This document shows, in pieces, positions 1,602-31,214 of a stretch of DNA of 32,000 bases. The notes below the pieces were generated by a model that was not told the DNA's origin, ran no database searches, and was given only the letters and a program-made list of their open reading frames with translations. The stretch covers positions 30,001-62,000 of the forward strand of contig NZ_NVQC01000020.1 in NCBI RefSeq assembly GCF_003044035.1. Direction: 5' to 3'. How positions within the stretch are numbered: the first letter of the stretch is position 1; every line of letters starts with the position of its first letter. The position numbers and the translations under genes are program-made. This DNA comes from Candidatus Methylomirabilis limnetica. Its GTDB lineage: Bacteria > Methylomirabilota > Methylomirabilia > Methylomirabilales > Methylomirabilaceae.

Positions 1602-1679
1602 ATGACGATCGCGCTGATCACGGGAATCACCGGGCAAGACGGCTCCTACCTGACCGAGCTGCGGCTCATGACAATTTAG
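1602..1679 (+). pseudogene. gmd: 5' remnant of a GDP-mannose 4,6-dehydratase (gmd) gene, 25 codons then stop
   Basis: GGAGA at 1591-1595, then ATG at 1602. Translation is MTIALITGITGQDGSYLTELRLMTI*. ALITGITGQDGSYLxE is the Gmd N-terminal Rossmann motif (E. coli: ALITGVTGQDGSYLAEF). Similarity ends after about codon 20. The TAG at 1677-1679 overlaps the 3' end of the convergent mptG. Confidence 0.6.
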
Positions 1680-2692
1680 CTAATCTCGGCCCCTCTATTG
1701 GAGGCCTTTGCTAAGAAGACGATCGCTTCAATTTTCCCTTGCATAGCCTGCATGAGACGATGCTTCAGGTGATCGGCTTGGTCCTGATCCATAGTCAGCC
1801 CATAGACCGCCGGTCCCCAGGAACTCTGCCCTACCCCTAACGCCCCAGCCCTTCGCATCGCCCTGGCCAGTTCCGCCCCCTGCGTGGTGGCAAAGGTTCC
1901 GCCCTGGACGGATCTGAACCAGTTTCCGACAATGCGCTGAATCCTGGTAAGCGCCTCACCGAATACAACGGGGTCGCGCTCGAGCACCGCCGGGAGCATC
2001 TGCATGAGCAGGATGCGGCTGAGCCGTCCCGCGGCGGTGGCAGGACGTAGGGCAAGCCGGCCAAACGCATCGACCTCTGCAACTCCGGCAAGCCCACGGT
2101 CGACATGGGGAATTGCCACGACAAAGGTCCACTCCTCTGGAAAGGGGTAGCGGACGATCGTGGGCGGAACGAGATTCCGGGTTCGTGTTTCGGTTTGCCT
2201 TAACCCACTCGAAACTCGAAACTCGAAACTCGAAACTGTTTCGCCTGCGGTGTTCATTCGCCGTCCGGCATCCACGACGAAACCGCCCTGCTCGAAGGCG
2301 GCGATCCCAATCCCCGACCGAGCCCCTCTGTCCATTACGGCTGCCAACTCCCGAACACTGGCGTCGATGGAGAAGAGACGAGCCAGCGCTGAAGCAACGC
2401 TGAGCGCAAGCTGCGTCCCGGAGCCCAAACCTGCATGGGCAGGGATTATTGCCTTGACGGAGATGTGAACCCCTTGCTGGAGATTGTAGTGGCGGAGAAA
2501 ACGGCGTGCCAACGTGAGGACTCGACCCCGCTCTCGCCCTACAGCCGAGAGGCGATCCGCCGGTGACGCCTCGAGAACGACCGAGGGCTCGCCGATCGCC
2601 AGCCCGATGCTCCCAAACATCCGACCCAATGAGCCGTCCAGGTCGATGAAGCCGAAGTGAAGTCTGGCAGGGGCCTTGACCGTGACGCCCAT
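1676..2692 (-). CDS. mptG: beta-ribofuranosylaminobenzene 5'-phosphate (beta-RFAP) synthase, H4MPT biosynthesis (GHMP-kinase fold); carries an in-frame repeat insertion
   Basis: Track ORF of 338 aa: MGVTVKAPARLHFGFIDLDGSLGRMFGSIGLAI...PAHAGLGSGTQLAL...GIGIAAFEQGGFVVDAG, the typical beta-RFAP synthase signature. The ATG overlaps the upstream gene's stop (TAATG). Confidence 0.8.
   Translation of the reverse strand: MGVTVKAPARLHFGFIDLDGSLGRMFGSIGLAIGEPSVVLEASPADRLSAVGRERGRVLTLARRFLRHYNLQQGVHISVKAIIPAHAGLGSGTQLALSVASALARLFSIDASVRELAAVMDRGARSGIGIAAFEQGGFVVDAGRRMNTAGETVSSFEFRVSSGLRQTETRTRNLVPPTIVRYPFPEEWTFVVAIPHVDRGLAGVAEVDAFGRLALRPATAAGRLSRILLMQMLPAVLERDPVVFGEALTRIQRIVGNWFRSVQGGTFATTQGAELARAMRRAGALGVGQSSWGPAVYGLTMDQDQADHLKHRLMQAMQGKIEAIVFLAKASNRGAEIS
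2166..2243 (-). repeat. Heptamer-armed palindromic element, copy E1 (in frame inside mptG)
   Basis: Minus strand reads CAGTTTCG AGTTTCG AGTTTCG AGTTTCG AGT-GGGTTAAGG-CAAACCGAAACACGAACCCGGAATCTCG. It encodes ...VSSFEFRVSSGLRQTETRTRNLV.... By hand alignment the arms are about 18/26 complementary. Confidence 0.75.
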
Positions 2693-3288: not shown

Positions 3289-4659
3289 CTATTGACGCGA
3301 GGGGAGGCCGTGTTCAAGATACCCCCATTTGAGATCTTCTTCCTGGATGTATTTTTTCCCAAGCAGCATCGCGAGCCTCGCCTTCATCAACTCACGACCC
3401 AGGTAAAAGGCGTGGCCAATCGGTTCCGGGCCAAGGTACGCCTTAACCTGGTCGAAGATCCGGTGGATGTCGGTCTCCTTGATGAAGAGATCGCGGTTGA
3501 ACGCGTAGATGGCCGCTCGATCGGCAAATATTCGGAAGTTCGGGTCTGTCACCATCCGTTGCATCTGACGCAGCTCCGCCTCGGATGGACAATCGACCCT
3601 CCGGTCTTTGATTGTGAGCAGACCGTCGTCGATGTCTTTTGGCAGCACCCCCCGCCGTCTGGCGTAATACATCAGCCGCCGGGCCAGGTCCAGCTCGCGT
3701 ACCGACCCTCTGGCCCACGAGGCCACCTCGGTGGTAAGTACATATCGCACCTGTAGCTCCGACATCACCCCTGTGAGGAGCGCATTGATCCCCGTGCTGT
3801 CGGCATCGGTTAGCTCTGTGACGTTTCCCACCCCCATAAGGATCTCCGCCTGCGGGAAGCGGTGTCTCGCCTCAACGTAGCGGGCGAGCGACTCGGCAAA
3901 ACCGAAGGTGATCGGCGCGAGGATCGGGTCGATGAGATATCGTGTGCAGCCCAGGCGCTCTACGGCCTCGATATTCGCCGCAAGGGAATCCAGCCCCTTG
4001 CCGAAATCGGGGATGATCACCGGGGTACACGCCAGATCCGGGGCCAGATGCAGATTCTGTGAGTTCAAGCTCAGGAGAAACTCCGCGCCGGCCTTGTCGG
4101 CGGCGATGATCTCCTGCGTATTGAAGGTATCGATGCTGACGCGAAACCCCTCGGACCGAAGCACCGAGACGATCTCGCCGACATTGCCGGCCGGTCGCGC
4201 CGGGATGCAGCCAACGTCGATGACGTCCGCGCCACAGGCTACGTAGTAGCGAGCCTTGCTGAGGACCTCGCCTATCGGCAGCGTGGGGGCGTCGTTGATT
4301 TCGGCCAGGATGGTCAGGTCGTGGCCGCCATACCCCTCCCGTTTCTTCTCTACGCCAAAGTAGTAGGGGATATCACGCAGATCTTTCGGCCCCTTTTCGA
4401 CCTTCACGCCCAGCGACTGTTCTAGCTCTTGAGGTTCCACGCGGCAGAGTCCGGGGATCATCAGCAGATCACAGCATGGCGACCGAAGAGAATGGATGAT
4501 GAGGGGCGTAGTCATCAGGGCGGCCACGCTGATCTTGAGGACGGCCACCTCGTATTCGAAATCGGCCTGCATGCCTGCCAGCGTCTCTTTCAGGGCGCGC
4601 TCTGCCAGCTTGCCGGTAACGAAGAGAATCTTCATGCGCCCCCCGCATTCCGTCCTCAC
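3289..4659 (-). CDS. Dihydropteroate-synthase-like pterin-binding protein (methanopterin biosynthesis)
   Basis: Track ORF of 456 aa. An N-terminal domain is followed by a DHPS-like barrel (GADVIDVGC..., IDTFN..., NVTELTDADS). A GTG at 4659 overlaps the SDR stop (GTGA). The alternative ATG at 4635 gives MKILFVTGKLAE. Confidence 0.7.
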   Translation of the reverse strand: MRTECGGRMKILFVTGKLAERALKETLAGMQADFEYEVAVLKISVAALMTTPLIIHSLRSPCCDLLMIPGLCRVEPQELEQSLGVKVEKGPKDLRDIPYYFGVEKKREGYGGHDLTILAEINDAPTLPIGEVLSKARYYVACGADVIDVGCIPARPAGNVGEIVSVLRSEGFRVSIDTFNTQEIIAADKAGAEFLLSLNSQNLHLAPDLACTPVIIPDFGKGLDSLAANIEAVERLGCTRYLIDPILAPITFGFAESLARYVEARHRFPQAEILMGVGNVTELTDADSTGINALLTGVMSELQVRYVLTTEVASWARGSVRELDLARRLMYYARRRGVLPKDIDDGLLTIKDRRVDCPSEAELRQMQRMVTDPNFRIFADRAAIYAFNRDLFIKETDIHRIFDQVKAYLGPEPIGHAFYLGRELMKARLAMLLGKKYIQEEDLKWGYLEHGLPSRQ

Positions 4660-5601: not shown

Positions 5602-5678
5602 GGACGGTTAGCTCAGATGGTTAGAGCGCCGCCTTCACACGGCGGAGGTCACTGGTTCGATCCCAGTACCGTCCACCA
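5602..5678 (+). tRNA. tRNA-Val (anticodon CAC), CCA encoded
   Basis: Hand-folded cloverleaf: acceptor GGACGGT/ACCGTCC, D arm GCTC-AGATGGTTA-GAGC, anticodon arm CCGCC-TTCACAC-GGCGG, variable AGGTC, T arm ACTGG-TTCGATC-CCAGT, discriminator A, then CCA. Confidence 0.9.
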
Positions 5679-5784: not shown

Positions 5785-5848
5785 GTAGGGGCGCAATTCA
5801 TTGCGCCCTCCGGGGTAAGAGGGCATGATGAATCACGCCCCTACGATC
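5785..5848 (+). repeat. REP-like hairpin unit, solo copy upstream of the RAYT-like gene
   Basis: GTAGGGGCGCAATTCATTGCGCCCT-CCGGGGTAAGA-GGGCATGATGAATCACGCCCCTACGATC. The inner 9-bp palindrome is GGGCGCAAT/ATTGCGCCC. The outer pair is GTAGGGGCG/CGCCCCTAC. Near-identical blocks lie inside the CDS at 6139-6225. Confidence 0.7.
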
Positions 5849-6138
5849 CTTAATCCATCGTTTTAGAGGGGCATTGCATGGCCTTCAATCCGGACGTTCA
5901 TCATCGCCGTTCGATCCGATTGAAGGACTACGATTATGCCCAACATGGTGCGTACTTCATCACCATCTGCACACGGAACCGAGAACGTCTATTGGGGTCC
6001 GTACAGGATGGGCAAATAGTCTTAAATGATGTTGGAAATATTGTCGAATCGGTATGGCATGGGCTACCCAATCGCTTTCCATCCGTTGGATTGGATGCGT
6101 ATGTCATCATGCCCAATCATGTCCATGGCATCATCACC

Positions 6139-6263
6139 GTAGGGGCGCAATTGATTGCGCCCTGCCCGGTCGGTCGCAACGATAAGGCCGGTCAAGAGGG
6201 CATGATGAATCACGCCCCTACGATCGTGGGCAACCCGGCGGGCATGATGAATCACGCCCCTAC
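6139..6263 (+). repeat. REP-like hairpin unit embedded in frame in the transposase CDS, with its 3' half-site tandemly duplicated
   Basis: GTAGGGGCGCAATTGATTGCGCCCT...GGGCATGATGAATCACGCCCCTACGATC runs 6139-6225. The 24-nt GGGCATGATGAATCACGCCCCTAC at 6198-6221 recurs exactly at 6240-6263. The region encodes VGAQLIAP...GMMNHAPTIVGNPAGMMNHAPT. Confidence 0.7.
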
Positions 6264-6471
6264 ATTGGGCAATATTGTTCGCACATTCAAGGCTGCATCA
6301 ACCAATGTGATTCGGAAAAGTCGAGCTCCCGCCTTTGCCCGGCAACGCAACTACCACGAGTACATCATCCGGGATGAGCGATCGCTGAACGGTATTCGTC
6401 GGTACATCCAGGTCAATCCGCTGCTTTGGTTATATGACAGAGAAAATCCTCAAGCAGTATGCGTACCCAAC

Positions 6472-6565
6472 AAAGAGGTCAACCGGGTACTGGCGAAGCA
6501 CTACAACTTCACGAACGAGGACCTGGATTTCATCATTATACGATGTCAAGTACCGGTTGACATAA
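6472..6565 (+). pseudogene. Frameshifted C-terminal remnant of a DNA methyltransferase or restriction-modification-type gene, read through by the transposase ORF
   Basis: The in-frame reading is KEVNRVLAKHYNFTNEDLDFII. Skipping one base (6538), which equals a 2-nt deletion, gives YDVKYRLT followed by TAA at 6563-6565. The restored LAKHYxFTxEDLDFII(N)YDVKYR matches my recollection of the HYGFTxEELDFIINYDIKYRMG tail of large N6-adenine methyltransferases. This was not checked by any search. Confidence 0.45.
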
Positions 6566-6585
6566 CAGATGGGTTCAGTAGGCTC
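6557..6585 (+). promoter_or_regulatory. Promoter-like bipartite motif, copy B (TTGACAT-N9-GTTCAGTAGGCTC), upstream of bioB
   Basis: TTGACA (6557-6562), a 16-nt spacer, then TAGGCT (6579-6584), about 33 nt before the bioB ATG. By hand alignment 23 of 30 positions match copy A, and both flanking blocks are perfect. Confidence 0.4.
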
Positions 6586-6617
6586 GATTTTGTTCAAGAT
6601 GCTGATCTTTCTTATGA

Positions 6618-7685
6618 ATGAGGCGTGAGGGGGAAGATGTGAAAGGCGTGCAATCGGGCGGTGTGACGGAGCGGGTGCGGCAGATCGGCGAACGGGTGCT
6701 TGCCGGAGATACGGTGACGTTCGAGGAGGCCGTCGAGCTCTTCGAGCGCTCCGATTACGACGTTCATGAACTGTTCCACGTGGCCAATCGTCTCCGGCTT
6801 AATCAGTTCGGGAACCGGATCCATCTCTGCGGCATTATCAACGCCAAGAGCGGCCTCTGTCTGGAGGACTGTAGCTTTTGTAGCCAGTCCGCTCACCACG
6901 CTACCCAGATCCCGAGGTATGGTGTAGTATCCCCAGACGAGATGGTCCAAGCTGCCAGAAAGGTCAGGGAGCACGGCGCCTCCGCGCTTGGGGTCGTCAC
7001 CGCGGATCGCGGCTACACCGCCGCGTCAGCGGATTTTCGTCAGCTTGTCGAGGGGATCCAGGCTATTGCGCAGGACGGCCTGGTAGAGGGTCACGCCTCC
7101 CTCGGAATCATGGGTGACGAGGAGTTTCGACAGCTCAAGGTGGCAGGTCTCACCACGTTCAATCACAACTTGGAGACCGGCCGCTCCTTCTTTCCGAAGG
7201 TCTGTACGACCCACACCTATGACGAGCGTGTGAGCACCGTCAAGGCCGCCAAGGCTGCCGGGATCAGGGTCTGTAGCGGCGGGGTCATCGGGATGGGGGA
7301 GAAGCCGGTGCATCGCGCCGAGCTCGCCTTCGCCCTCAAGGAGCTGGACGTAGACGAGGTCCCCCTGAACTTCCTGATCTCTGTGGAAGGGACCCGATTG
7401 GAGAAGGCCACCCCGCTCTCACCGCTCGAAATGCTGAAGGTGATCGCACTCTTCCGCTGGATCCTCCCGACCAAGAACATCTTTATCTGCGCCGGCAGAG
7501 CGCATCTGGGCGAACTGCAATCGATGATCTTTTTCGCCGGCGCGAGCGGAATGATGGTCGGCGACTTCCTCACGACCAAGAACCGAAGCGTGAGCGACGA
7601 TCTCAAGATGCTTCATGGTTTGGGGCTTGAGTTCGGCGAATCCTTGCTCGCCCTGGAACGCCAGGCCGCGACTGCCGCCATCTAA
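6618..7685 (+). CDS. bioB: Biotin synthase (radical SAM)
   Basis: Track ORF of 355 aa with the CxxxCxxC cluster CLEDCSFCSQS and otherwise typical BioB sequence. The start could instead be the in-frame GTG at 6639, just after GAGGGGGAAG. Confidence 0.85.
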   Translation: MRREGEDVKGVQSGGVTERVRQIGERVLAGDTVTFEEAVELFERSDYDVHELFHVANRLRLNQFGNRIHLCGIINAKSGLCLEDCSFCSQSAHHATQIPRYGVVSPDEMVQAARKVREHGASALGVVTADRGYTAASADFRQLVEGIQAIAQDGLVEGHASLGIMGDEEFRQLKVAGLTTFNHNLETGRSFFPKVCTTHTYDERVSTVKAAKAAGIRVCSGGVIGMGEKPVHRAELAFALKELDVDEVPLNFLISVEGTRLEKATPLSPLEMLKVIALFRWILPTKNIFICAGRAHLGELQSMIFFAGASGMMVGDFLTTKNRSVSDDLKMLHGLGLEFGESLLALERQAATAAI

Positions 7686-20955: not shown

Positions 20956-21434
20956 TCGATAGTCGACAAATTCAGGATATGCTTCCCCACCGGTATCCCT
21001 TTCTCCTGGTCGATAGGATTCTTGAGATCGAGCCGGGAAAGAGGGTGGTAGGGCTCAAGAATGTGACCATTAACGAGGCATTCTTTCAGGGTCACTTTCC
21101 AGGGCAGCCGATTATGCCGGGAGTACTGGTGATCGAGGCGATGGCGCAGGTCGGAGGGATCCTGTTGATGCGGACGCTGAACGTGAGCGCCGAAAAGAAG
21201 CTCCTGTATCTTGCCGGCATCGACCGGGCCAGATTTCGCAGGCCTGTGCTGCCCGGGGATCAGGTGAGATTAGAGGTCGAGTTAATCCAACTCAGGAGCC
21301 GCACCTGTCGAATGCGAGCTAGCGCCATGGTGGATGGCAAGCTGGCTGTGGAGGCTGAGTTGTCGTGCATTGTCGTTGACCGGGGATCCCCTAACCTTCC
21401 TCCAGGCGTTCCAGTGGCGATGGGGGAACAATGA
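20952..21434 (+). CDS. fabZ: 3-hydroxyacyl-ACP dehydratase
   Basis: Contains [13 protein letters not shown] and [23 protein letters not shown] overlap with lpxD. Confidence 0.9.
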
Positions 21435-22207
21435 TACAAATTCATCCGTCAGCGGTTGTTGCACCGGAGGCCAAGCTTGGACCGGACTGTAGCGTCGGCG
21501 CCTTTTCGGTCATCGGTCCTGATGTCACCGTGGGGTCCGGGACCGTCATCGGTTCGCATACCCTCATTGATGGGATTACAGAGATCGGAGAACGGTGCCA
21601 GATTTTCTCTCACGTAGTCCTTGGCGCCGTGCCCCAAATCTTTCAGGATCGAAGTGAGATGACCCGGCTGATAATAGGTGACGAGACAGTCATCCGGGAG
21701 TTCGCATCGGTCCATCGCGGATCCTCGAAAGGCAGGGGCGCTACGATACTAGGGCGCAGGAACTACATCATGGCCTATGCGCATATTGCACACGATTGCC
21801 TCTTACGTGATGACGTGGTAGTCGCCAGTCAAGCTGGACTGGCCGGCCACGTCGAGATCGAAGACCGAGCGGTTATCGGTGGGCAGGCAGGGATCCATCA
21901 GTTCGTCCGTATCGGACAATACGCCATGGTTGGCGCCTGCTCGGCAGTTTCGCAGGACATCCCACCCTTCGTCAAGGCGCAGGGGGACCGGGCCAAGTGC
22001 TTCGGTTTGAATACGGTTGGTCTTCGCCGCCATGGTATTGGTCAGGAGGCGATCCTTCACCTCAAGCAAGCCTATCGGTTACTCTTCCTTTCCAACCTTA
22101 ATACGTCTCAGGCTCTGGAGAGGATTGCATCGGAGGTGAGCTCCTGTCCAGAGATCGATCACCTGATTCACTTCATCAAGCTCTCGACGAGAGGGATCGC
22201 GCGCTAA
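21431..22207 (+). CDS. lpxA: Acyl-ACP--UDP-N-acetylglucosamine O-acyltransferase
   Basis: Track ORF of 258 aa: [10 protein letters not shown], hexapeptide repeats and the LpxA C-terminal helical domain. ATGA overlap with fabZ. Confidence 0.9.
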
Positions 22208-22213
22208 CGCGAT

Positions 22214-22334
22214 GTGTCGAGTTTCGAGTTCCGAGTTTCGTGTTGAAGAAGATCTTACGTGCAAGGGAACCTTCGACTCAGCACCTGGAACTGGAGAGCC
22301 AAACCCGAAACCCGAAACTCGCAACTCGAAACGG
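22214..22334 (+). repeat. Heptamer-armed palindromic element, copy E3 (longest, MITE-like), filling the lpxA-lpxI spacer
   Basis: Left arm CGAGTTTCGAGTTCCGAGTTTCGTGTTG; 54-nt centre; right arm CAAACCCGAAACCCGAAACTCGCAACTCGAAACGG. By hand alignment the arms match at 23/28 positions as an inverted repeat. Confidence 0.8.
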
Positions 22335-22342
22335 TAAAGTCG

Positions 22343-23143
22343 ATGGAATGCCTCGGGATCATAGCCGGCGGAGGGCCGCTTCCGGTCGTAGCGGCGCGGG
22401 AAGCGCGCATGCAGGGGTTCAAGGTCGTGGCGGTGGCCATCGAAGAGGCTGCCTCTGCCGATCTGGCCAATGAAGTAGATACGATCTGTTGGGTGGGAGC
22501 CGGACAGCTTGGCCGGTTGATCGCGGTGCTAAAGCAAGAGAAGGTGACGAATGCTGTGATGCTTGGGAAAGTCCCGCTCGACCGCCTCTTCTCGCGCGTA
22601 AAGACCGATCTGGATGGCTTGCTGCTCTATCTGAAGCTCAAAGACCGACGCGGCGATACGATCCTCGCGGGTGTAGGCGATGCGTTGAAACAGAAAGGGA
22701 TCACTCTGCATGATTGTCGGCGGTTCCTTTCTTCGATCGTATTGCGGAAGGGGATGCTGACGGCGCGGGCGCCAAGTTCCTTAGAGCAGCAAGATATCGA
22801 CTTTGGAAGAGAGCTTGCCAGAGCCATCGCGCAGTTGCGAATCGGCCAAACTGTCGTGGTCAAACGCCGAACTGTCCTGGCAGTGGAGGCGATCGAGGGA
22901 ACTGATGCCGCCATTCGCCGCGGCGGCAAACTTGGGAATGGGGGAGTGGTGGTCGTCAAGGTTGGGCGTCCCGACCAGGATATGCGCTTCGATCTTCCGG
23001 TCATCGGACCGGAGACCGTGGTAGCGCTCGAAGAGGCGGGCGCGACTGCGCTTGCCCTGGATGCCGATCAGACCTTGATTCTAGATCGGGAAAAGGTAGT
23101 GGCGACTGCCGACCGACTTGGGCTAGCGATGGTGGCAGATTAG
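22343..23143 (+). CDS. lpxI: UDP-2,3-diacylglucosamine pyrophosphatase LpxI (DUF1009)
   Basis: The ATG at 22343 gives MECLGIIAGGGPLPVVAAREA..., a typical LpxI N-terminus. It sits between lpxA and lpxB. The track start at 22259 merely translates the repeat element. Confidence 0.75.
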   Translation: MECLGIIAGGGPLPVVAAREARMQGFKVVAVAIEEAASADLANEVDTICWVGAGQLGRLIAVLKQEKVTNAVMLGKVPLDRLFSRVKTDLDGLLLYLKLKDRRGDTILAGVGDALKQKGITLHDCRRFLSSIVLRKGMLTARAPSSLEQQDIDFGRELARAIAQLRIGQTVVVKRRTVLAVEAIEGTDAAIRRGGKLGNGGVVVVKVGRPDQDMRFDLPVIGPETVVALEEAGATALALDADQTLILDREKVVATADRLGLAMVAD

Positions 23144-23153
23144 CAGCAGGACG

Positions 23154-23219
23154 GCCATCAGCCGTCAGCTATCCGCCAAGACCCAGAGCTGAATGCTGAC
23201 TGCTGATGGCTGATCGCTG
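23154..23219. repeat. Second heptamer-armed palindrome, (nnTCAGC)n ... (GCTGAnn)n
   Basis: GCCATCAGCCGTCAGC (23154-23169) and GCTGACTGCTGATGGC (23195-23210) match 15/16 as an inverted repeat. The right arm is heptamer-periodic: GCTGAAT GCTGACT GCTGATG GCTGATC GCTG. Confidence 0.65.
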
Positions 23220-23271
23220 CCTCTAAGAGCGAGTTCGCTCATGCCGATGCAATGGGAAGGAAGAATCCGGA

Positions 23272-24216
23272 ATGAAGAACGGGCATCCAATTCGAGTCGG
23301 TGTGGTGGGTGTTGGCTACGTGGGGCAGCACCACGCCAGAATCTATTCGGAGATGACGGGCGTTGAGCTGGTCGGGGTGGTCGATATCGACGAGACCCGC
23401 CTGCAGGAGTTGGGGACGCGGTACCGTATCCAACTGTGTCGCGATTACCGCGAGCTCCTGGGAAGGGTGGATGCCGTCAGTGTAGCGGTGCCGACCCTGG
23501 CGCACTACTCGATCACCAAGGAGTTCCTGGAGCGCGGGGTAGACGTCCTGGTGGAGAAACCGATCGCGCAGTCCCTCGCTCAGGCCGACGAACTGGTTGG
23601 GATTGCCAAGGCTGACGATCGAATCTTCCAGGTTGGGCATATCGAGCGATTCAATGGTGCGGTCAAGGCGCTCGAGAGCATTGTGAGGAGCCCTGGTTTC
23701 ATCGAATGCCACCGTCTTGGCCCTTTCGCCCACCGCAACACGGATGTTGATGTTGTTCTCGACCTGATGATCCATGATATTGACATCGTGCTGAACCTGA
23801 TCAAGTCGCCTGTCGTCGCAGTAACGGCCGTCGGTGTCCCGGTCATCTCCGATCAGGTGGATATCGCCAACGCACGGCTCCAGTTTGAGTCGGGGTGTGT
23901 CGCGAACCTGACCGCCAGCCGGGTGAGCGTCGAACGAGTCCGACGGGTGCGGATATTTCAGCGGGACACCTTCATCTCTCTTGACTATTCTCAGCAAGAG
24001 ATTGCTGTCTACCATCGCATCCCGGCGGCGGATTCAGATGCCGAAGCACCTCCCACGATCGTCAAGGAAGAGATTCCTATCGATAAGGCAGAGCCGCTTC
24101 GCGTCGAGCTCGAGAGCTTTATCGAGTGCGTCCGGACTAGAAAGAGACCGCTGGTCTCAGGCGAGGACGGCCGGGACGCCCTGAAGGTGGCCTCTCAGAT
24201 TATGGAGAAACTGTAG
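23272..24216 (+). CDS. Gfo/Idh/MocA-family NAD(P)-dependent oxidoreductase (possible GnnA-like UDP-GlcNAc 3-dehydrogenase)
   Basis: Track ORF of 314 aa with N-terminal Rossmann fold IRVGVVGVGYVGQHH and the EKP motif (VLVEKPIA). It is embedded between lpxI and lpxB. Confidence 0.75.
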   Translation: MKNGHPIRVGVVGVGYVGQHHARIYSEMTGVELVGVVDIDETRLQELGTRYRIQLCRDYRELLGRVDAVSVAVPTLAHYSITKEFLERGVDVLVEKPIAQSLAQADELVGIAKADDRIFQVGHIERFNGAVKALESIVRSPGFIECHRLGPFAHRNTDVDVVLDLMIHDIDIVLNLIKSPVVAVTAVGVPVISDQVDIANARLQFESGCVANLTASRVSVERVRRVRIFQRDTFISLDYSQQEIAVYHRIPAADSDAEAPPTIVKEEIPIDKAEPLRVELESFIECVRTRKRPLVSGEDGRDALKVASQIMEKL

Positions 24217-24221
24217 GCCAG

Positions 24222-25394
24222 ATGCGAGATGGCCGGATTCTGATCGTCGCAGGGGAGCCCTCAGGAGACTTGCATGCCGCTTGCGTAGTTCAAGAACTCC
24301 TGCGGCGCGCCCCCCACCTTACTATAGAGGGAATCGGGGGAGACCGGATGCGCCAAGCGGGTGTCCGCCTCCATGCACATGTTGGCGATCTGGCGGTGGT
24401 CGGCATCGTCGAGGTTGCTGCCAGGCTTCCCGCCATCTGGCGGGCATATCGGAGCATGATCCGGTGTTTACGCGAGCGACGCCCGGATCTGATGATCCTT
24501 GTAGATTTTCCGGACTTCAACCTGAGGCTCGCCCGCCGGGCATTCCGACTTGGCATCCCCGTTGTCTATTTCATCAGTCCGCAGGTGTGGGCTTGGCGTG
24601 CTGGCCGGATACGGTCGATCGCGAAGTATGTCCGACGGCTCCTGGTGATCTTTCCCTTTGAGGAGAGTTTCTATCGCGAAAGGGGGATCGAAGCCGTGTA
24701 TGTCGGTTACCCGCTCCTGGATCAGTTAACGTCTTCACCATCAATGCAGGAGGCAAGGCGCCGCCTGGAACTGGAGGGGACGGCCCCAGTGCTGGGGCTC
24801 TTGCCCGGCAGCCGCGTGGGTGAGATCATGCGACATCTACCTATCTTACTCAGGTCGATCAGGCAGCTGATGATAGAGCAGCCGGGTCTTCGCGTCATCA
24901 TTGCCGTGGCCGACGGTCTTCCCCTCGACCTCATCAGATCCTACTTGAATCAAGAGGTTATCTCGGCGAGGGTTGTTCAGGGGCGAACCTATGAGGTCAT
25001 GGCTGCCTCGGACGTGATCCTTGTGGCTTCAGGTACTGCGACCCTGGAGGCGGCCATTATCGGTACCCCCATGGTGATCGTGTATCGCCTCGCATTTCTC
25101 TCGTGGCTGCTGGGCCGCGCGTTGATCAGGGTTCCGTACATCGGCATGGTAAATCTGGTAGCGGGAAGACGAGTTGTACCTGAGCTGATTCAATTTCACG
25201 CGACGCCCGAGCGGATCGCTGACGAAGTGCGCCGGTTGCTCCTGTCGACGGAGCAACGTCTCCAGATGCGGCAGGATTTCCAGCAGGTACGTGATCGATT
25301 GGGGCCGCCGGGAGCTATAGGTCGGACGGTAGACGTTATCCTTGAGTGCTTGCAGTCTGGCGCCGGGGAGGGGATGGCGGTCCAGAGAGGGTAA
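24222..25394 (+). CDS. lpxB: Lipid-A-disaccharide synthase
   Basis: Track ORF of 390 aa: ILIVAGEPSGDLHAA..., VYFISPQVWAWR, and a GT-B C-terminal half (SGTATLEAA). Confidence 0.9.
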   Translation: MRDGRILIVAGEPSGDLHAACVVQELLRRAPHLTIEGIGGDRMRQAGVRLHAHVGDLAVVGIVEVAARLPAIWRAYRSMIRCLRERRPDLMILVDFPDFNLRLARRAFRLGIPVVYFISPQVWAWRAGRIRSIAKYVRRLLVIFPFEESFYRERGIEAVYVGYPLLDQLTSSPSMQEARRRLELEGTAPVLGLLPGSRVGEIMRHLPILLRSIRQLMIEQPGLRVIIAVADGLPLDLIRSYLNQEVISARVVQGRTYEVMAASDVILVASGTATLEAAIIGTPMVIVYRLAFLSWLLGRALIRVPYIGMVNLVAGRRVVPELIQFHATPERIADEVRRLLLSTEQRLQMRQDFQQVRDRLGPPGAIGRTVDVILECLQSGAGEGMAVQRG

Positions 25395-26089
25395 TGGAGA
25401 AGTCGCCCTTTTCCAGAGCGGTCGCTGTGCTCAGGGAAGGTCGTTTTGTGCTGCGTATCGTTCCATGGCTTGCTGCGAGGGTTATGCAATGCCTATTTCG
25501 GCTGCTGCGGATCGTTCATGTTGGCCGTACGTATCCTGAAAGCTGCTGGGCAAAGGGGGAGCGAATCATCGTGGTCTTCTGGCACGGCCGGCTCCTGATG
25601 ATGCCCTTTGTCTATCCCGGGAAGCCGGGAGTGCTCCTTGTCAGCCAGCATCGGGATGGGGAGTATTTCAGCCGAATTGCAACGCTTCTCGGGTTCGAGG
25701 TGATTCGAGGCTCAGCGACACGTGGCGGCATGCGCGCTCTCAAGCAGATGATTCGCGCCATCAAAGGAAGGCTGAACCTGGTTGTTACCCCGGATGGCCC
25801 AAAGGGACCGCGAGCAAAGGTCAGGCCCGGCGTCATCGAGGTGGCGAAGCTGACGGGGGCTCCTATTGTGCCGGTGAGCTTTAGTGCGTCGCGACGCCGA
25901 ATCCTCCAGAGCTGGGACGCCTTCCTCGTACCGGTCCCATTCTCCCGTGCCGTATACATCTGGGGGGAACCGATGTACGTTCCTCCGACGGCGACTAAGG
26001 ATGAGGTGACAAAGTATCAGGAAGCCCTCGAAGAACGCCTCGACCTGCTCACGATGAAGGCCGACGATTACTTCAGGGCGAATCTGTGA
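25394..26089 (+). CDS. DUF374 / lysophospholipid-acyltransferase-like protein
   Basis: The ATG at 25394 overlaps the lpxB stop (TAATG). MEKSPFSR...VFWHGRLLMMPF...VSQHRDGEYFSRI...RGSATRGG...TPDGPKGP is the DUF374 pattern often seen next to waaA. Confidence 0.7.
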   Translation: MEKSPFSRAVAVLREGRFVLRIVPWLAARVMQCLFRLLRIVHVGRTYPESCWAKGERIIVVFWHGRLLMMPFVYPGKPGVLLVSQHRDGEYFSRIATLLGFEVIRGSATRGGMRALKQMIRAIKGRLNLVVTPDGPKGPRAKVRPGVIEVAKLTGAPIVPVSFSASRRRILQSWDAFLVPVPFSRAVYIWGEPMYVPPTATKDEVTKYQEALEERLDLLTMKADDYFRANL

Positions 26090-26105
26090 CGACCGGTATG
26101 CCGGG

Positions 26106-27392
26106 ATGTATTCTGTCTACACCCTCCTGCTGACCCTCGTTTTACTTGTCTGGTCACCCTCTATCATTTTGAGGGCCCTTCGAAGCCCCTACTACCGGGA
26201 GGGATGGCGTGAGCGTCTGGGTTGTTACCCTAAACCACTGCTCTCACGGCTTCAAGCCGTTCAGCCTGTCTGGATACATGCCGTCTCGGTGGGGGAGGTC
26301 GGCGCTGCCTCCGTCCTGGCTAATCTCTGGACCGCTCGTCGGCCAACGCTACCGCTCCTGGTCTCAACAGTAACCGGAACCGGACGAGAGGTTGCCAGAC
26401 GAACGTTTCCGCAGGCAGCGGCAGTGGTGTACTTCCCGATCGATCTCCCAATGATCGTTCATCGGGCCATTGCTACCGTGAGACCCCGCCTCATCCTCCT
26501 CACAGAGACAGAAATCTGGCCAAATTTTCTCTACGAATGTGCTGCCTCAAGGATTCCGGTAGCCATCATCAATGGTCGGATATCAGAGCGCTCTTTTTCA
26601 CGCTACTGCCTCGTCCGACCCTTCATCCGCCGGGTCCTTCAACGCGTTGATCTCTTTTGCATGCAAACCGGCACAGACGCGAAGCGGATTCTTGCGTTGG
26701 GTGCCAGTCCTGAGCGGGTGCATGTGGTGGGCAATCTCAAGGTCGATGCAGCCCCCCACGCTGACGCCTCATCGCTTGCCGAACAGTGGCGTCGGGAACT
26801 TCACATCGAAGCCGAGATACCGATCCTGGTGGCAGGAAGTACTCATGCAGGTGAGGAGGAGGTATTGCTGCAGGTCTTTGGTCGCCTGCGCGGTGAGTTC
26901 CCGGACCTTCTGTTGATTCTGGCGCCACGCCATCCCGAGCGCGTCACCCAGGTAGAGACGATGGTTGCAGACTATGGCCTGACTGCAGTGAGACGGAGCG
27001 CCTTAGCTCAAGGAAGAGGCGACGCAAAGGAAGTGATCCTCGTGGACACCGTTGGTGAGCTGTCGACACTATATGCGGTGGGGAGTATCAGCTTTGTTGG
27101 AGGGAGCCTCATACCCAGAGGTGGCCACAACCTGCTTGAGCCGGCCCTGTACGGTCGTCCGATTCTGTTCGGTCCCCATATGGAAAACTTCGCTGAAGCG
27201 AGCGCATACCTAATCGAATGGGGGGCGGCTATCCAGGTAAGCGATGCGGCGGACCTTACCAGGCAGCTCGCCATACTCCTGCGTGATCCCGCCGCCAGGG
27301 AGAGTATGGGGCAAGCTGCAATGGCAGCTTTGGCGGCCCATCACGGCGCGTGTGAGCGGACGGTAGCCCTTCTGGAGAAGTTCGTTTTGTGA
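26106..27392 (+). CDS. waaA: 3-deoxy-D-manno-octulosonic acid (Kdo) transferase
   Basis: Track ORF of 428 aa with an N-terminal membrane anchor, then WIHAVSVGE, ETEIWPN and GGSL...GGHN..EPA. Confidence 0.9.
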   Translation: MYSVYTLLLTLVLLVWSPSIILRALRSPYYREGWRERLGCYPKPLLSRLQAVQPVWIHAVSVGEVGAASVLANLWTARRPTLPLLVSTVTGTGREVARRTFPQAAAVVYFPIDLPMIVHRAIATVRPRLILLTETEIWPNFLYECAASRIPVAIINGRISERSFSRYCLVRPFIRRVLQRVDLFCMQTGTDAKRILALGASPERVHVVGNLKVDAAPHADASSLAEQWRRELHIEAEIPILVAGSTHAGEEEVLLQVFGRLRGEFPDLLLILAPRHPERVTQVETMVADYGLTAVRRSALAQGRGDAKEVILVDTVGELSTLYAVGSISFVGGSLIPRGGHNLLEPALYGRPILFGPHMENFAEASAYLIEWGAAIQVSDAADLTRQLAILLRDPAARESMGQAAMAALAAHHGACERTVALLEKFVL

Positions 27393-28513
27393 AAGGCATA
27401 GAGGCGCTCTCGGCCTGGACGCAACACTGCATGGCGGAGGCTTCGGAGCAATGGACCGCTCAAGCCTGGCTGACGTGCTTGCGTCCGGTCTCGTATGCGT
27501 ATGGGGCAGCAATCTCGCTTCGGGCTGCGCTCTTTGCGTCTGGTCTCGCCAGGACTCGCCGACTTCCAGTCCCGGTGCTGAGCGTTGGAAACGTAAGTGC
27601 TGGCGGAAGCGGGAAGACCCCGTTCGTTGAGATGTTGGCCGCTCGGCTGCGCGAGCAAGGCCAGCGGGTGGTCATCATTTCACGGGGGTATCGAGGTGGT
27701 TTGAAGAAGCCAACAATTATCAGCGACGGCAGAGATCTACGATGTGAACCGCCGGTCGCCGCTGACGAGGCCTATATGCTGGCCAGGCACCTGCCGGGTG
27801 TCGCTGTCTTGACGGGAGCCGACCGATACCGAGTTGGTGAGGTTGCCCTTGAGCAGGTGGATTGCGGTGTCATTATTCTGGATGATGGGTTTCAACATCT
27901 CAGGCTCTACCGCGATCTGGATATCGTCCTGGTTGACGCGGGCAACCCTCTTGGCTACGGTCGGCTGTTGCCCTCGGGGTTGTTGCGGGAGCCTCCGGAG
28001 GCGCTCGGACGGGCCGACATCGTGGTCGTCACCCACGCTGACGCCGGACGGGACCTGGACCCCGCCATGCAGGCGATCCGACGGTATGCGCCGACCACCC
28101 CAATCGCCCTGGCTGTTCATCGGCCTATTGGCCTCATCGATGTCAACGGCGGAGAACGCCTGGGCCTTGAACGTCTCACTGGTCAGCGGTTGTTGGCAGC
28201 CTCTGGCATCGCCAATCCGAGCCGGTTTGAGGCCACCCTTGTTCAGCTTGGCGCCTTCGTTGTGGCTCGTCGTGTCTTCCCCGATCACCACCGCTATTCT
28301 ACCGCCGACCTGGAGATCATCAACGAAGCGGCCAGGAAGAGCGGCGCCTCCATGGTAGTCACCACAGAAAAGGATATGGTAAAATTGACGTGCTTGGACC
28401 TTGCAAAGGTGGAGGCACCGTTCTACGCCCTGTCGATCTCACTCGAATTGGTGGAAGGGGTGGAGGTGTTAGACGCCATGGTGAGCCGCATGGTGAAACT
28501 GAGCGCCTCATGA
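27389..28513 (+). CDS. lpxK: Tetraacyldisaccharide 4'-kinase
   Basis: P-loop VGNVSAGGSGKTP, then ISRGY and DDGFQH. GTGA overlap with waaA. Confidence 0.9.
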   Translation: MKGIEALSAWTQHCMAEASEQWTAQAWLTCLRPVSYAYGAAISLRAALFASGLARTRRLPVPVLSVGNVSAGGSGKTPFVEMLAARLREQGQRVVIISRGYRGGLKKPTIISDGRDLRCEPPVAADEAYMLARHLPGVAVLTGADRYRVGEVALEQVDCGVIILDDGFQHLRLYRDLDIVLVDAGNPLGYGRLLPSGLLREPPEALGRADIVVVTHADAGRDLDPAMQAIRRYAPTTPIALAVHRPIGLIDVNGGERLGLERLTGQRLLAASGIANPSRFEATLVQLGAFVVARRVFPDHHRYSTADLEIINEAARKSGASMVVTTEKDMVKLTCLDLAKVEAPFYALSISLELVEGVEVLDAMVSRMVKLSAS

Positions 28514-29493
28514 AGCCCAAGACCATGGGCGGTATTGCCGCCTATCTCGAATACCTCCTCGCGATGGGACTCGCGAAGGGATTGTTGTACCTGCCATCTT
28601 CAGTGGCCTACTCTGTAGGTGAGGGATTGGCTGGGCTGCTCTACCGCTTTGATCACAAGCATCGCCTTGTTGCTCATGAGAACCTGCATCGGGCCTTTCA
28701 TGGTGAGCTTTCCTCTATGGAGATTGATGAACTTACGCGCTTATGCTTTATCAATCTCGGCCGAACCGTTGTCGAGACCTGTCGGAGTCTCAAGATCGAT
28801 CGAGAGAACTTCCGGCAAGTTATCGGGGTCGAAGGGTATGAGCACATCCAGCAGGCCAAGCGCAGAGGGAAAGGAATCATCTACGTCACCGCGCACTTGG
28901 GTTCGTGGGAACTGCTGCCGCTTGCGGTAGGCCTTATGGGTGAGCCGTTGTCTGCTGTGACGCGCCCCCTGGATAATCCATACCTCGATAGGGCAATCAA
29001 CCGGTTGCGGACCGCCTGGGGAACGAGGGTATTAGCCAAGAAACAGGTGATGCCGGTGCTGGTGCGGGCGCTGCTTCGTGGGGAGAGCGTCGCGATCCTC
29101 ATGGATCAAAACACCACCTGGAAAGAGGGGGTCTTTGTCGATTTCTTTGGTATGCAGGCCTGCACGACCCTTGCGCCAGCTCTCCTGGCCCTCAGAACCG
29201 ACGCATCGGTTCTTCCTGCCGCCATCATACGGTGCGGGCGGGACCGGCACACTGTTCTTGTGGAGAAAGAGATCCCCTTGATCAGGACCGGGCGCCTGAA
29301 GGCAGACGTCATTGCCAACACCGCCTCTTTCACCAAGGCCATCGAAGCGTTCGTTCGGAGGGAGCCGGCCCAGTGGCTCTGGCTCCATCGCAGATGGAAA
29401 ACACAACCGCGTGCCACGTGCCAGGTTCCGAACCTGGAATCCGGAACCCGATACGTGGAATCTGGAACTGCGAGGCAGAACCCGACACAATGA
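28510..29493 (+). CDS. lpxL: Lipid A biosynthesis late (lauroyl/myristoyl-type) acyltransferase, LpxL/HtrB family; C-terminal tail encoded by a repeat element
   Basis: The ATG at 28510 (ATGA overlap with lpxK) gives MKPKTMGGIAAYLEY.... It has the HX4E motif TAHLGSWELL, then ...PAQWLWLHRRWK, followed by about 30 extra residues. Confidence 0.8.
   Translation: MKPKTMGGIAAYLEYLLAMGLAKGLLYLPSSVAYSVGEGLAGLLYRFDHKHRLVAHENLHRAFHGELSSMEIDELTRLCFINLGRTVVETCRSLKIDRENFRQVIGVEGYEHIQQAKRRGKGIIYVTAHLGSWELLPLAVGLMGEPLSAVTRPLDNPYLDRAINRLRTAWGTRVLAKKQVMPVLVRALLRGESVAILMDQNTTWKEGVFVDFFGMQACTTLAPALLALRTDASVLPAAIIRCGRDRHTVLVEKEIPLIRTGRLKADVIANTASFTKAIEAFVRREPAQWLWLHRRWKTQPRATCQVPNLESGTRYVESGTARQNPTQ
29411..29488 (+). 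repeat. Degenerate heptamer-periodic element, copy E5, at the lpxL / heptosyltransferase junction
   Basis: Period-7 string ...ACCTGGA ATCCGGA ACCCGAT ACGTGGA ATCTGGA ACTGCGA.... Inverted repeat GGTTCCG (29424-29430) / CGGAACC (29442-29448). Positions 29462-29488 match 22285-22311 of copy E3 at 20/27 positions, ungapped and aligned by hand. Confidence 0.55.
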
Positions 29494-31214
29494 GTGTGGC
29501 GACGCTTCGCATCAGGCGTACCTTCGAACCAGACCAGATTCGATCTATCCTGGTCGTAAGCCCTAATTGGTTGGGCGACGCGGTCCTCGCTCTGCCTGCG
29601 CTCGCCAACCTCCGCCGCTCCTTTCCTGAAGCAAGAATCTCACTTCTCGTGCGCCCGTGGCTTAGCCAGTTGTTTCGATCCTTACCGTTCATCGACGAGC
29701 TCGTTGAGTTGCCAAGCAGAGGTGAGCTGATGTGGGCGGCGACAGCACTACGGCAACGAGACTTTGAATTGGCCCTGCTCTTACCGAACAGCTTCCGAAC
29801 AGCTCTGATCGTCCGGCTGGCAGGAATTCCGCACCGGGTCGGGTATGTGGCCGATGGACGGGGCCCTCTTTTGACGGTTGGGGTGTGCCCCTCACCTTCG
29901 AGTTTCGAGTTTCGAGTTTCGAGTTACGCGTCACGAGATTCTTTGAACCCGAAACCCGAAATCCGAAACCCGAAACTTCATCATCAGGCAGACTCCTACC
30001 TTGGCCTGCTCCGATCGCTTAAGTGGGATGCGTGGTCGCGTCCGACAGCTTCTCTGCTTCCGCCGGGAAGCGACGCGGAAGCAGAGAAGCTGCTCACCGA
30101 CTTGGGTCTCCCCTCTCACACCATGTTAATTGGCATGACCCCCGGTGCTGCCTATGGGACGGCAAAGCGTTGGCCGACTGACCGGTTTGCCGCAGCAGCC
30201 GATCTTTTGATTGATCGCCTTGGAGCCACCGTCCTGTTATTCGGTTCACCGAGGGAAGCCTCGTTAACAAGCGCCATCCGCGAGCGGATGCGCGGAGCTG
30301 CTATCGACTTCGGTGGCCGGACGACTCTTCCCGAATTGTCCGGCCTGCTCAGTCGATGCGCGCTGCTCCTCACGAACGATACGGGGACGATGCATCTCGC
30401 CTCCGCGTTAGGGGTGCCGTGCGTCGCCCTGTTCGGCCCGACGGATCCTCTCCGAACAGGGCCTCTCGGCTCTGGACATCGGGTTCTTCACGATCCGCCG
30501 GCCTGCAGTCCGTGTCGCTACCGCGACTGCCCGATCGACCATCGATGCATGCAGGCGCTGGACGTGGAGAGGGTTGTGGCTGCCGTGGAGGCCCTTCTCA
30601 CACGATCAACCTCCACTACCGAGGAGAACGTCCGGATGCGGCCCGCGGTCTTTCTGGACCGGGACGGTACCATCAACGAGGAGATCGGGCCGATTCAACA
30701 CCCAGACTTGATGAGACCGATTCCCGGGGCGGCAGAAGCGTTGAAACGCCTTGGCGAGGAAGGGTATCTGCGGATCGTGGTCACCAATCAGGCGCGAGTG
30801 GCCCGAGGGGACGCAACGGAAGAGCTGGTTGAAGCGACCCATCGGCGACTCCTGCAGTTGCTCCGCGAGGCGGGAGGCGAGATGGATGCCTTCTACTACT
30901 GCCCTCATCATCCTCGGGAAGGGCTCTTCCCGTACAGACGGGCCTGCCTGTGTCGTAAGCCTGCCCCCGGGTTGATTCAGCAGGCGGCCTTTGAGCAGCA
31001 GGTAGACATGGAGCGATCGTACGTCGTTGGGGATAAGGTGAGCGATATGCTGCTGGCAGATCGGCTAGGCCTCCCCTCGGTGCTGGTACTGACCGGCTAT
31101 GGGCGCGAGTCGTTGGATCGCCTTCATGCGGCGGGAGGTCCAATGCCCGCTCATACGGCTAGAGATCTGCTGGGCGCCACCGAGTGGATTGTGCAACGGA
31201 GCGGCCGAGGATGA
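29490..31214 (+). CDS. Fusion protein: GT9 ADP-heptose:LPS heptosyltransferase (WaaF-like) plus D,D-heptose 1,7-bisphosphate phosphatase (GmhB)
   Basis: The ATG at 29490 (ATGA overlap with lpxL) gives MSVATLRIRR..IRSILVVSPNWLGDAVLALPAL (GT9 N-terminus)...NDTGTMHLASALGVP. From 30636 the sequence is MRPAVFLDRDGTINEE...VVTNQ...CPHHP...CLCRKP...VGDKVSDM, a GmhB HAD phosphatase with a Zn-Cys motif. Confidence 0.8.
   Translation: MSVATLRIRRTFEPDQIRSILVVSPNWLGDAVLALPALANLRRSFPEARISLLVRPWLSQLFRSLPFIDELVELPSRGELMWAATALRQRDFELALLLPNSFRTALIVRLAGIPHRVGYVADGRGPLLTVGVCPSPSSFEFRVSSYASRDSLNPKPEIRNPKLHHQADSYLGLLRSLKWDAWSRPTASLLPPGSDAEAEKLLTDLGLPSHTMLIGMTPGAAYGTAKRWPTDRFAAAADLLIDRLGATVLLFGSPREASLTSAIRERMRGAAIDFGGRTTLPELSGLLSRCALLLTNDTGTMHLASALGVPCVALFGPTDPLRTGPLGSGHRVLHDPPACSPCRYRDCPIDHRCMQALDVERVVAAVEALLTRSTSTTEENVRMRPAVFLDRDGTINEEIGPIQHPDLMRPIPGAAEALKRLGEEGYLRIVVTNQARVARGDATEELVEATHRRLLQLLREAGGEMDAFYYCPHHPREGLFPYRRACLCRKPAPGLIQQAAFEQQVDMERSYVVGDKVSDMLLADRLGLPSVLVLTGYGRESLDRLHAAGGPMPAHTARDLLGATEWIVQRSGRG
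29897..29978 (+). repeat. Heptamer-armed palindromic element, copy E4 (in frame inside the heptosyltransferase domain)
   Basis: TTCG AGTTTCG AGTTTCG AGTTTCG AGTTACG CGTCACG AGATTCT TTGAACC CGAAACC CGAAATC CGAAACC CGAAACT T. It encodes SSFEFRVSSYASRDSLNPKPEIRNPKL. Confidence 0.8.

Follow-up and report, generated by a model that had tools for sequence, protein, structure and literature searches.

A heptanucleotide-repeat hairpin in frame in a heptosyltransferase gene of Candidatus Methylomirabilis limnetica: a stop-free unit that explains tolerance and is not evidence of design

How can a palindrome built of seven-base repeats reside inside an enzyme gene without breaking it, and was its repeat unit shaped to do so? 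The question is raised by a 32,000-nucleotide stretch of the genome of Candidatus Methylomirabilis limnetica (contig NZ_NVQC01000020.1, positions 30,001 to 62,000; GC = 0.585), here called the window. One hairpin of the window, copy c, lies within an intact lipopolysaccharide gene under purifying selection (29490..31214, + strand), the product of which joins a GT9 heptosyltransferase II to a GmhB-like HAD phosphatase. The preliminary description of this locus proposed that the unit, AGTTTCG, is adaptive, because it is free of stop codons in all six reading frames and can enter coding sequence harmlessly. We find that the stop-free unit explains the tolerance of copy c, but is not evidence of design.

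Copy c consists of two inverted heptamer arrays separated by a short loop, all given here on the + strand. The left arm (29894..29928) is formed by ACCTTCG, three units of AGTTTCG and a final AGTTACG, and reads PSSFEFRVSSY in the GT9 gene. The 21-nt loop (29929..29949, CGTCACGAGATTCTTTGAACC) resembles partly decayed heptamer units, and a period-21 repeat identified by Tandem Repeats Finder (TRF) spans 29897-29941. The right arm (29950..29977) is composed of the units CGAAACC, CGAAATC, CGAAACC and CGAAACT and reads PKPEIRNPKL. The hairpin is translated in frame as PSSFEFRVSSYASRDSLNPKPEIRNPKLH within the GT9-GmhB fusion. TRF detected a perfect period-7 array at 29897-29925 (4.1 copies, 100% match) and its inverted period-7 partner at 29946-29976; head-to-tail period-7 units with 4.1-4.6 copies and 85-100% match begin at 2207, 22217, 22301, 29897 and 29946. 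When one mismatch at most is allowed, AGTTTCGAGTTTCG has 11 matches, which fall at three loci of the window (2210-2237, 22220-22326 and 29901-29977), and none in 100 shuffles of the window.

Comparison with relatives identifies copy c as a recent insertion. The search with the host protein returned 2716 homologs at E <= 1e-20, the best 120 of which are listed. The closest homolog (P0001, locus L123) is 95% identical, 574 aa long, and contains the insert, and the next-closest orthologs from NC10 bacteria among the matches listed are mostly 550 aa long. The insert is absent from the 94% identical ortholog P0002 (locus L122) and from 13 other aligned NC10 orthologs, and the protein alignment displays a clean 24-residue gap in all 14. 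At the DNA level, the 88-nt segment shared by the window and L123 (29894..29981) stands in place of 16 nt, GGGCGGGACGGTGCTG, in the empty allele of L122, a net gain of 72 nt or 24 aa. This comparison of filled and empty alleles revealed no target-site duplication or flanking direct repeat at copy c. The ratio of non-synonymous to synonymous substitution rates (dN/dS) between the two filled alleles is 0.23-0.26; therefore, the host gene stayed functional. The variant unit occupies differing positions in the arms of the window and L123. Copy c is present in two independent assemblies, ERZ4201063 and ERZ841129, which makes it unlikely that the arrays are an assembly artefact; in ERZ4201063, the window lies on a metagenome contig of 107.6 kb with a coverage of about 700x. 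Copy c arose recently in a Methylomirabilis-like lineage, where it took the place of 16 nt within a variable loop, in the N-terminal half of the GT9 heptosyltransferase, and the host gene has been intact and under purifying selection since the insertion. About 65 nt downstream of the insert, the GT9 coding sequence also contains a perfect 18-nt inverted repeat, CAGCTTCTCTGCTTCCGC / GCGGAAGCAGAGAAGCTG, with an 11-nt loop (30046-30092), the left arm of which differs in L122 and L123.

The arithmetic behind the preliminary description is sound. Three tandem heptamers are read in all three phases and yield a cyclic 7-aa peptide, and translation of three units each of AGTTTCG, CGAAACT, CGAAACC and CGAAATC gave no stop in any of the six frames. 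The AGTTTCG array encodes SFEFRVS and its complement RNSKLET, the CGAAACC unit RNPKPET or GFGFRVS, and the CGAAATC unit RNPKSEI or DFGFRIS. The list of open reading frames (ORFs) does contain all four antisense shadow ORFs in which such peptides had been noticed (2113-2403, 2160-2468, 22079-22324 and 29689-29934). However, the property is common. Full enumeration of heptamers shows that 8264 of 16384 (50.4%) are stop-free in six frames, and the share is 62.5% after weighting for the GC content of the window. The stop-free property of the AGTTTCG unit is no more than chance. The proposal that the arms can be inserted in any frame and either orientation is correct in that the arms are unable to truncate a frame, and two of the three window copies are in frame inside genuine genes. 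Its second half says little about a hairpin, because the element is reverse-complement symmetric, so that either strand runs from an xGTTTCG arm to a CGAAACx arm. Solo arrays in other genomes do lie in genes in both orientations and encode SFEFRVS-type and ETRNSKL-type peptides.

The unit is not restricted to Methylomirabilis. An exact scan for (AGTTTCG)x3 in 185,579 species genomes, one per bacterial or archaeal species, yielded at least 120 loci in at least 10 phyla. The matches include Acidobacteriota, Planctomycetota, Verrucomicrobiota, Bacteroidota, Chloroflexota, Desulfobacterota, Pseudomonadota and Cyanobacteria, and also Methylomirabilota, Marinimicrobia, Binatia and Schekmanbacteria. 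In a 905-kb sample assembled from the scan loci, the window and three NC10 loci, period 7 dominates with 394 tandem arrays, whereas periods 6 and 8 account for 38 and 50, and the heptamer arrays comprise 133 distinct units. Outside the zones that seeded the scan loci, 36 further AGTTTCG-class arrays occur in 23 loci, whereas other units are found at most five times each. Therefore, AGTTTCG forms a real multi-copy family in those genomes. About one third of the arrays have an inverted array within 150 nt, and about two thirds are unpaired. Loop length varies between 11 and 147 nt, the loop sequences are unrelated, and the lengths of paired arms are uncorrelated (rho = -0.12). A hairpin of Alcanivorax nanhaiticus (L094:7089-7458) pairs an arm of 43 units with one of 2, and the gammaproteobacterial matches (L094, L010, L026 and L118) are mostly long solo arrays of 10-12 units. 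The family has the hallmarks of heptanucleotide simple sequence repeats (SSRs), resembling the short tandemly repeated repetitive (STRR) sequences: a tandem 7-nt unit, dispersed copies with an excess of period 7, and unit number and sequence that vary between relatives, as expected from slippage. The element plan, an AGTTTCG array followed by a short variable loop and an inverted CGAAACT/C array, places it in this known class.

If the unit had been selected as six-frame stop-free so that the element can colonise coding regions, arrays should be frequent in genes. An array was counted as intragenic when an open frame spanned it with at least 150 nt beyond on both sides, and the same proxy was applied to random positions. 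By this measure, 71% of random 30-nt intervals lie in open frames, compared with 35% of AGTTTCG-class arrays (n = 162), 48% of other stop-free heptamer arrays and 19% of stop-bearing arrays. Copies in ORFs are thus rarer, not commoner, than expected. Pfam scans of 20 candidate ORFs verified genuine in-frame arrays in 17. The Pfam-supported hosts are HrpA (two arrays), a PabA-PabB fusion, a Ser/Thr kinase, GlmS, MoeA, GidA and MetAP, together with GT4 and PMT_2-family glycosyltransferases, HutI, DnaE2, MnmA, another GT9 and two type IX secretion system (T9SS) sorting tails. Many of the intragenic arrays are in interdomain linkers, and both array orientations are represented. The remaining three candidates, NuoF, an aldehyde dehydrogenase and HemN, were dropped, as their arrays are positioned upstream of the likely start. 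A search with synthetic SFEFRVS/ETRNSKL peptides was useless as a census of hosts, since nearly all of its 63 matches were hypothetical proteins of 50-119 aa without Pfam domains. Tgt is a further Pfam-supported host, in two Acidobacteriota and at the same site: L053:4288-4315 and L089:7542-7617 contain a decayed AGTTTCG hairpin just before the LFGIVQGG motif, which suggests an old retained insert.

The remaining evidence on adaptive design is similarly unfavourable. All four unit variants of the window are stop-free, two of its three copies are intragenic, at least 17 intragenic arrays exist elsewhere, and the sole stop-bearing heptamer hairpin of the window is intergenic, all of which speaks for such design. 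However, 50-62% of heptamers share the property, and stop-free units are not enriched: they make up 43.8% of the 121 non-AGTTTCG heptamer units of the same genomes, compared with 43.9% expected from letter permutations. The loops of 38 hairpins leave 2.63 frames open on average, and 2.54 when shuffled, which is no signal of stop depletion. Nor are element lengths in these 38 hairpins biased to multiples of three (13, 8 and 17 in the modulo 3 classes). Together with the under-representation of arrays in open frames, these results speak against the adaptive claim, and selection of the unit for coding regions is in our judgement very improbable. The preliminary description had contrasted AGTTTCG with a GCTGAnn hairpin that carries TGA and was seen only between genes. 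Its units GCTGAAT, GCTGACT and GCTGATG do carry a TGA stop on one strand each and the hairpin is intergenic, but the contrast is drawn from a single hairpin, and it is one of survivorship, because a stop-bearing family is by definition invisible inside ORFs.

We favour, with some reserve, the reading that copy c is one member of a multi-copy, hairpin-forming heptanucleotide-repeat family, the spread of which is shaped by a passive gene-integrity filter. The arms would gain, lose and homogenise units via replication slippage. New copies would arise through an imprecise, probably recombination- or repair-templated event rather than through cut-and-paste transposition. Selection would then purge the copies that break genes, and the survivors would be found in spacers, gene ends, interdomain linkers and surface loops, within genes only when their net length is a multiple of three. 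The AGTTTCG family passes the gene filter because its unit lacks TA, TG and CA dinucleotides. Half of all heptamers would pass it as well; therefore, the stop-free property is a permissive accident and not an adaptation.

The passive filter has to be weighed against several observations that do not sit easily with it, set out in this and the next two paragraphs. The intragenic fraction can be placed only between about 10%, as verified with Pfam, and 35%, by the ORF proxy, in a biased sample of 8-kb loci; it is far above that usual for repeats of the repetitive extragenic palindromic (REP) type and well below random placement. The AlphaFold2 model of the host protein was too weak to place the insert in a surface loop: built from an alignment of 16 sequences, it has a mean predicted local distance difference test (pLDDT) score of 66, with residues 100-186 below 50, and the insert has no predicted secondary structure. 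The AGTTTCG arm comes first in 38 inverted pairs and second in only 3. Neither this polarity nor a multi-copy unit common to many phyla is predicted by slippage plus chance, and both point to sequence-specific propagation or horizontal spread of the whole hairpin. It is conceivable, though unlikely, that the hairpin is a true miniature mobile element that transposes whole, its heptamer arrays being terminal inverted repeats bound by a transposase or recombinase. Such a reading would explain both the 38:3 polarity and why at least 10 phyla have an identical unit, and presence/absence polymorphism between 94-95% identical genomes accords with it. Arrays on eight IMG/VR viral contigs, one of which has four, add to its side. 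The latter, L129 (IMGVR_UViG_3300006893_000123), is an 11.8-kb viral contig with four exact (AGTTTCG)x3 matches at three places. Against mobility stand the lack of a target-site duplication and the imprecise junctions, with 88 nt replacing 16 nt, and loops that are unrelated even among the four copies of one genome and range so widely in length. Uncorrelated arm lengths (2 and 43 units in one element) and the roughly two thirds of arrays that lack an inverted partner also speak against it. No associated transposase was identified, and none was searched for. As a minority prospect, the AGTTTCG hairpins could constitute a family of very small mobile elements that spans phyla and has so far not been described, propagated whole by a sequence-specific, horizontally spread mechanism. 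Being neutral to the reading frame, such elements would supply conserved enzymes with new loops and linkers again and again.

Other observations that run counter to a purely passive filter come from the spacers of NC10 genomes. The window encodes methanopterin-pathway and lipid-A genes, and its best protein matches are from Candidatus Methylomirabilis and NC10. It contains three AGTTTCG hairpins, two in frame inside genes and one between lpxA and lpxI. The latter, copy b (22213..22333, +), has arms at 22213-22240 and 22299-22333 around a 58-nt loop and is flanked by lpxA (21431-22207) and lpxI (22343-23143). The stop-bearing hairpin with nnTCAGC / GCTGAnn heptamer arms (23154..23210, +) follows directly after lpxI and is retained at the same position in four NC10 genomes with arms of 2-3 units. 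The lpxA-lpxI spacer always contains a heptamer hairpin, but the unit family differs: AGTTTCG in the window and L126, and GCGTGCA/TGCACGC in L124:2748-2811 and in M. oxyfera (L125:2830-2917). Retention of heptamer hairpins in orthologous spacers across NC10 species could mean that the hairpins are functional. In related NC10 locus L126, a GTAG-type REP pair of the kind present in the window is inserted, in nested fashion, in the loop of the GCTGAnn hairpin downstream of lpxI (3570-3640).

A functional hairpin, as RNA or DNA, might serve within operons to stabilise or process transcripts, to cause pausing or to control translation, and the heptamer periodicity would be the mode of stem growth. 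The folds are strong, which favours this reading. We folded window regions 2165-2245, 22210-22340 and 29890-29985, and the gene-antisense strand was more stable than the sense strand in all three copies: -24.5 against -23.5 kcal/mol for copy a, -48.7 against -41.2 for copy b, and -40.8 (z = -5.9) against -28.8 for copy c. The GCTGAnn hairpin reached -35.2 kcal/mol (z = -6.5). The differences between arms are transitions, which produce G-U pairs on the antisense strand, hence its better fold, and A-C mismatches on the sense strand. In contrast, Rfam 15 at gathering score matched none of the hairpins, the sole match in the whole window being a tRNA at 5602-5675. A scan of 21000-31000 for intrinsic terminators and promoters flagged no heptamer hairpin, none having a GC-rich stem followed by a T run. 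It is not plausible that copies in the loops and linkers of enzymes share a regulatory target, the arms of old copies decay freely, and slippage homogenisation can keep units alike without selection. A regulatory role for the family is accordingly improbable in our view. The polarity, the cross-phylum unit, the two unit families in one spacer and the antisense folding nevertheless keep both mobile and functional hairpins alive as alternatives to the passive gene-integrity filter.

The history of copy a is compatible with the passive filter. Copy a (2173..2237, - strand) lies in a gene for a GHMP-kinase-family beta-RFAP synthase of the methanopterin pathway (1676..2692, -). Its perfect arm of four AGTTTCG units on the gene strand (2210-2237) is followed by a loop (2194-2209) and a decayed partner (2173-2193), and it reads VSSFEFRVSSGLRQTETRTRN. 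In NC10 orthologs, with lengths of 319 to 356 aa, the corresponding loop is hypervariable. SFEFRVS/GFGFRVS together with QTETR survives in some, and a PETRNPKLETR-type arm alone in others. L136 has a homogenised (CCCAAAY)x4 array, further orthologs have different small palindromes, and the shortest ortholog retains only a single CCGAAAT-like word at the junction. Copy a is thus an old copy that decayed where it stands, in a pattern that fits slippage, point decay and in-frame deletions. A fourth copy of the contig, in the ftr-fhcA spacer 7.1 kb left of the window (L001:19821-19907), brings the density to 4 elements in about 40 kb. The same spacer in the related genome L135 measures only about 27 nt and has no hairpin, and its flanks are not alignable. 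The loops of the four copies are mutually unrelated; only the arms are common, and no full-length homology was found among the copies of the window.

Persistence in host genes under purifying selection might suggest that the SFEFRVS/ETRNPKL peptide itself is a selected protein feature, a useful flexible loop or interaction motif. Inserts are indeed common to diverged orthologs: two Acidobacteriota have one in Tgt, and many NC10 species have one in RFAP synthase. However, the peptide drifts fast, and its reading changes with the arm and the state of decay; the host enzymes are unrelated, most orthologs have no insert, and intergenic copies are the majority. Selection for the peptide is barely credible.

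Further repeats accompany the hairpins in the window. A heptamer-type array (29410..29468, +) of two CGTGCCA units followed by CCGAACC/TGGAATC-type units makes up the C-terminal tail of ORF 28390-29493, the lipid-A acyltransferase, shortly ahead of the GT9 start. The units of the heptamer arrays that encode this tail differ between NC10 species (L125:9950-10000, L124:9941-9959 and L126:9918-9979), and in M. oxyfera (CCCGACA)x7 is translated as SPTPDTRHPTPYTRHPKP. These tail arrays cause over-long N-terminal calls of the downstream GT9 gene. A REP-like palindrome family, GTAGGGGCGCAATTSATTGCGCCC / GGGCATGATGAATCACGCCCCTAC, occurs at 5785-5844, 6138-6163, 6197-6222 and 6240-6263. ORF 5878-6621 (+) resembles a REP-associated tyrosine transposase (RAYT) of NCBIfam in two stretches (E = 2.5e-14, under the family cut-off). 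Three of the REP copies are in frame inside this ORF, one reading ..VGAQLIAPCP.. and two ..GMMNHAPT...

Among known systems, heptanucleotide SSRs are closest to the AGTTTCG family. According to Mrazek 2007 (cited in PMC4679880 and PMC4692102), no long SSR class is more abundant than heptanucleotide repeats in the majority of bacterial genomes, and slippage of the polymerase across a 7-nt contact was put forward as the cause. MacGregor 2015 (PMC4679880) described TAACTGA repeats common to Beggiatoaceae, Cyanobacteria and Bacteroidetes, the translation of which is a repeating 7-aa peptide, and favoured horizontal transfer of the repeat. Rehm 2015 (PMC4692102) described GGGAATC and GGGGAYT repeats of Xanthomonas and Nostoc. 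Like AGTTTCG, these repeats and the cyanobacterial STRR have a 7-nt unit in tandem 2-6 times or more, many dispersed copies per genome with unit numbers variable between relatives, a heptamer common to distant lineages, and occasional inverted pairs that form stem-loops. The stop content of the unit likewise limits the sites of copies, and the same cyclic 7-aa argument is made in PMC4679880, so that the reasoning on stop codons in heptamer repeats has been in print since 2015, for TAACTGA. The AGTTTCG family differs in that about one third of its arrays form hairpins with a fixed arm order. It is also stop-free on both strands and resides in conserved enzymes in both orientations, whereas the described SSR families are mainly intergenic or under-represented in coding sequence (PMC4679880, PMC4692102). 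Neither the AGTTTCG array nor its peptides were found as a bacterial repeat in the literature searched. The AGTTTCG hairpin family newly joins the heptanucleotide-repeat class and is notable for two traits: the order of its arms is fixed across phyla, and it frequently resides in frame within conserved enzymes.

Other classes of small palindromes share less with the AGTTTCG hairpins. REPs and REPINs are also short dispersed palindromes that form hairpins as inverted pairs and lie mostly between genes, but they have a conserved GTAG-type head and a RAYT gene. The AGTTTCG hairpins share neither this sequence nor an evident RAYT link, and the REPs of the window (5785-6263) and the RAYT-like ORF form a separate family. 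MITEs, the miniature inverted-repeat transposable elements, are similarly small and non-coding, with inverted-repeat ends and presence/absence polymorphism. Unlike them, the AGTTTCG hairpins have no target-site duplication and no conserved interior, and no parent insertion sequence was identified, though none was searched for. The Rickettsia palindromic elements (RPEs), reportedly described by Ogata and colleagues in 2000, are said to be palindromic inserts in frame in protein-coding genes, with a peptide tolerated by the enzyme and orthologs that lack the insert. Copy c resembles them, as it lies in frame inside an intact ORF and is absent from close orthologs. RPEs are, however, said to be about 100-150 bp long, conserved over their full length within a family, devoid of tandem 7-nt units and restricted to Rickettsia. 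The term RPE occurs in Rickettsia genome papers and in a 2024 review of MITEs. Resemblances to a parS half-site, to the termini of CRISPR repeats and to the attC core of integrons were dropped because of mismatches in sequence or spacing.

The stop-free property is not in itself a discovery, and the significance of the family lies elsewhere. For genome annotation, the arrays create spurious small ORFs and false N-terminal extensions, and the starts of some GT9 orthologs are placed upstream, through the array. For protein evolution, copy c provides a clean, datable case in which a non-coding repeat became 24 residues of a working enzyme, with parallels from several phyla in GlmS, Tgt, HrpA, DnaE2, MetAP and further proteins. 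For the biology of repeats, the fixed arm order and the heptamer shared across phyla bear on why 7-nt repeats abound in bacteria.

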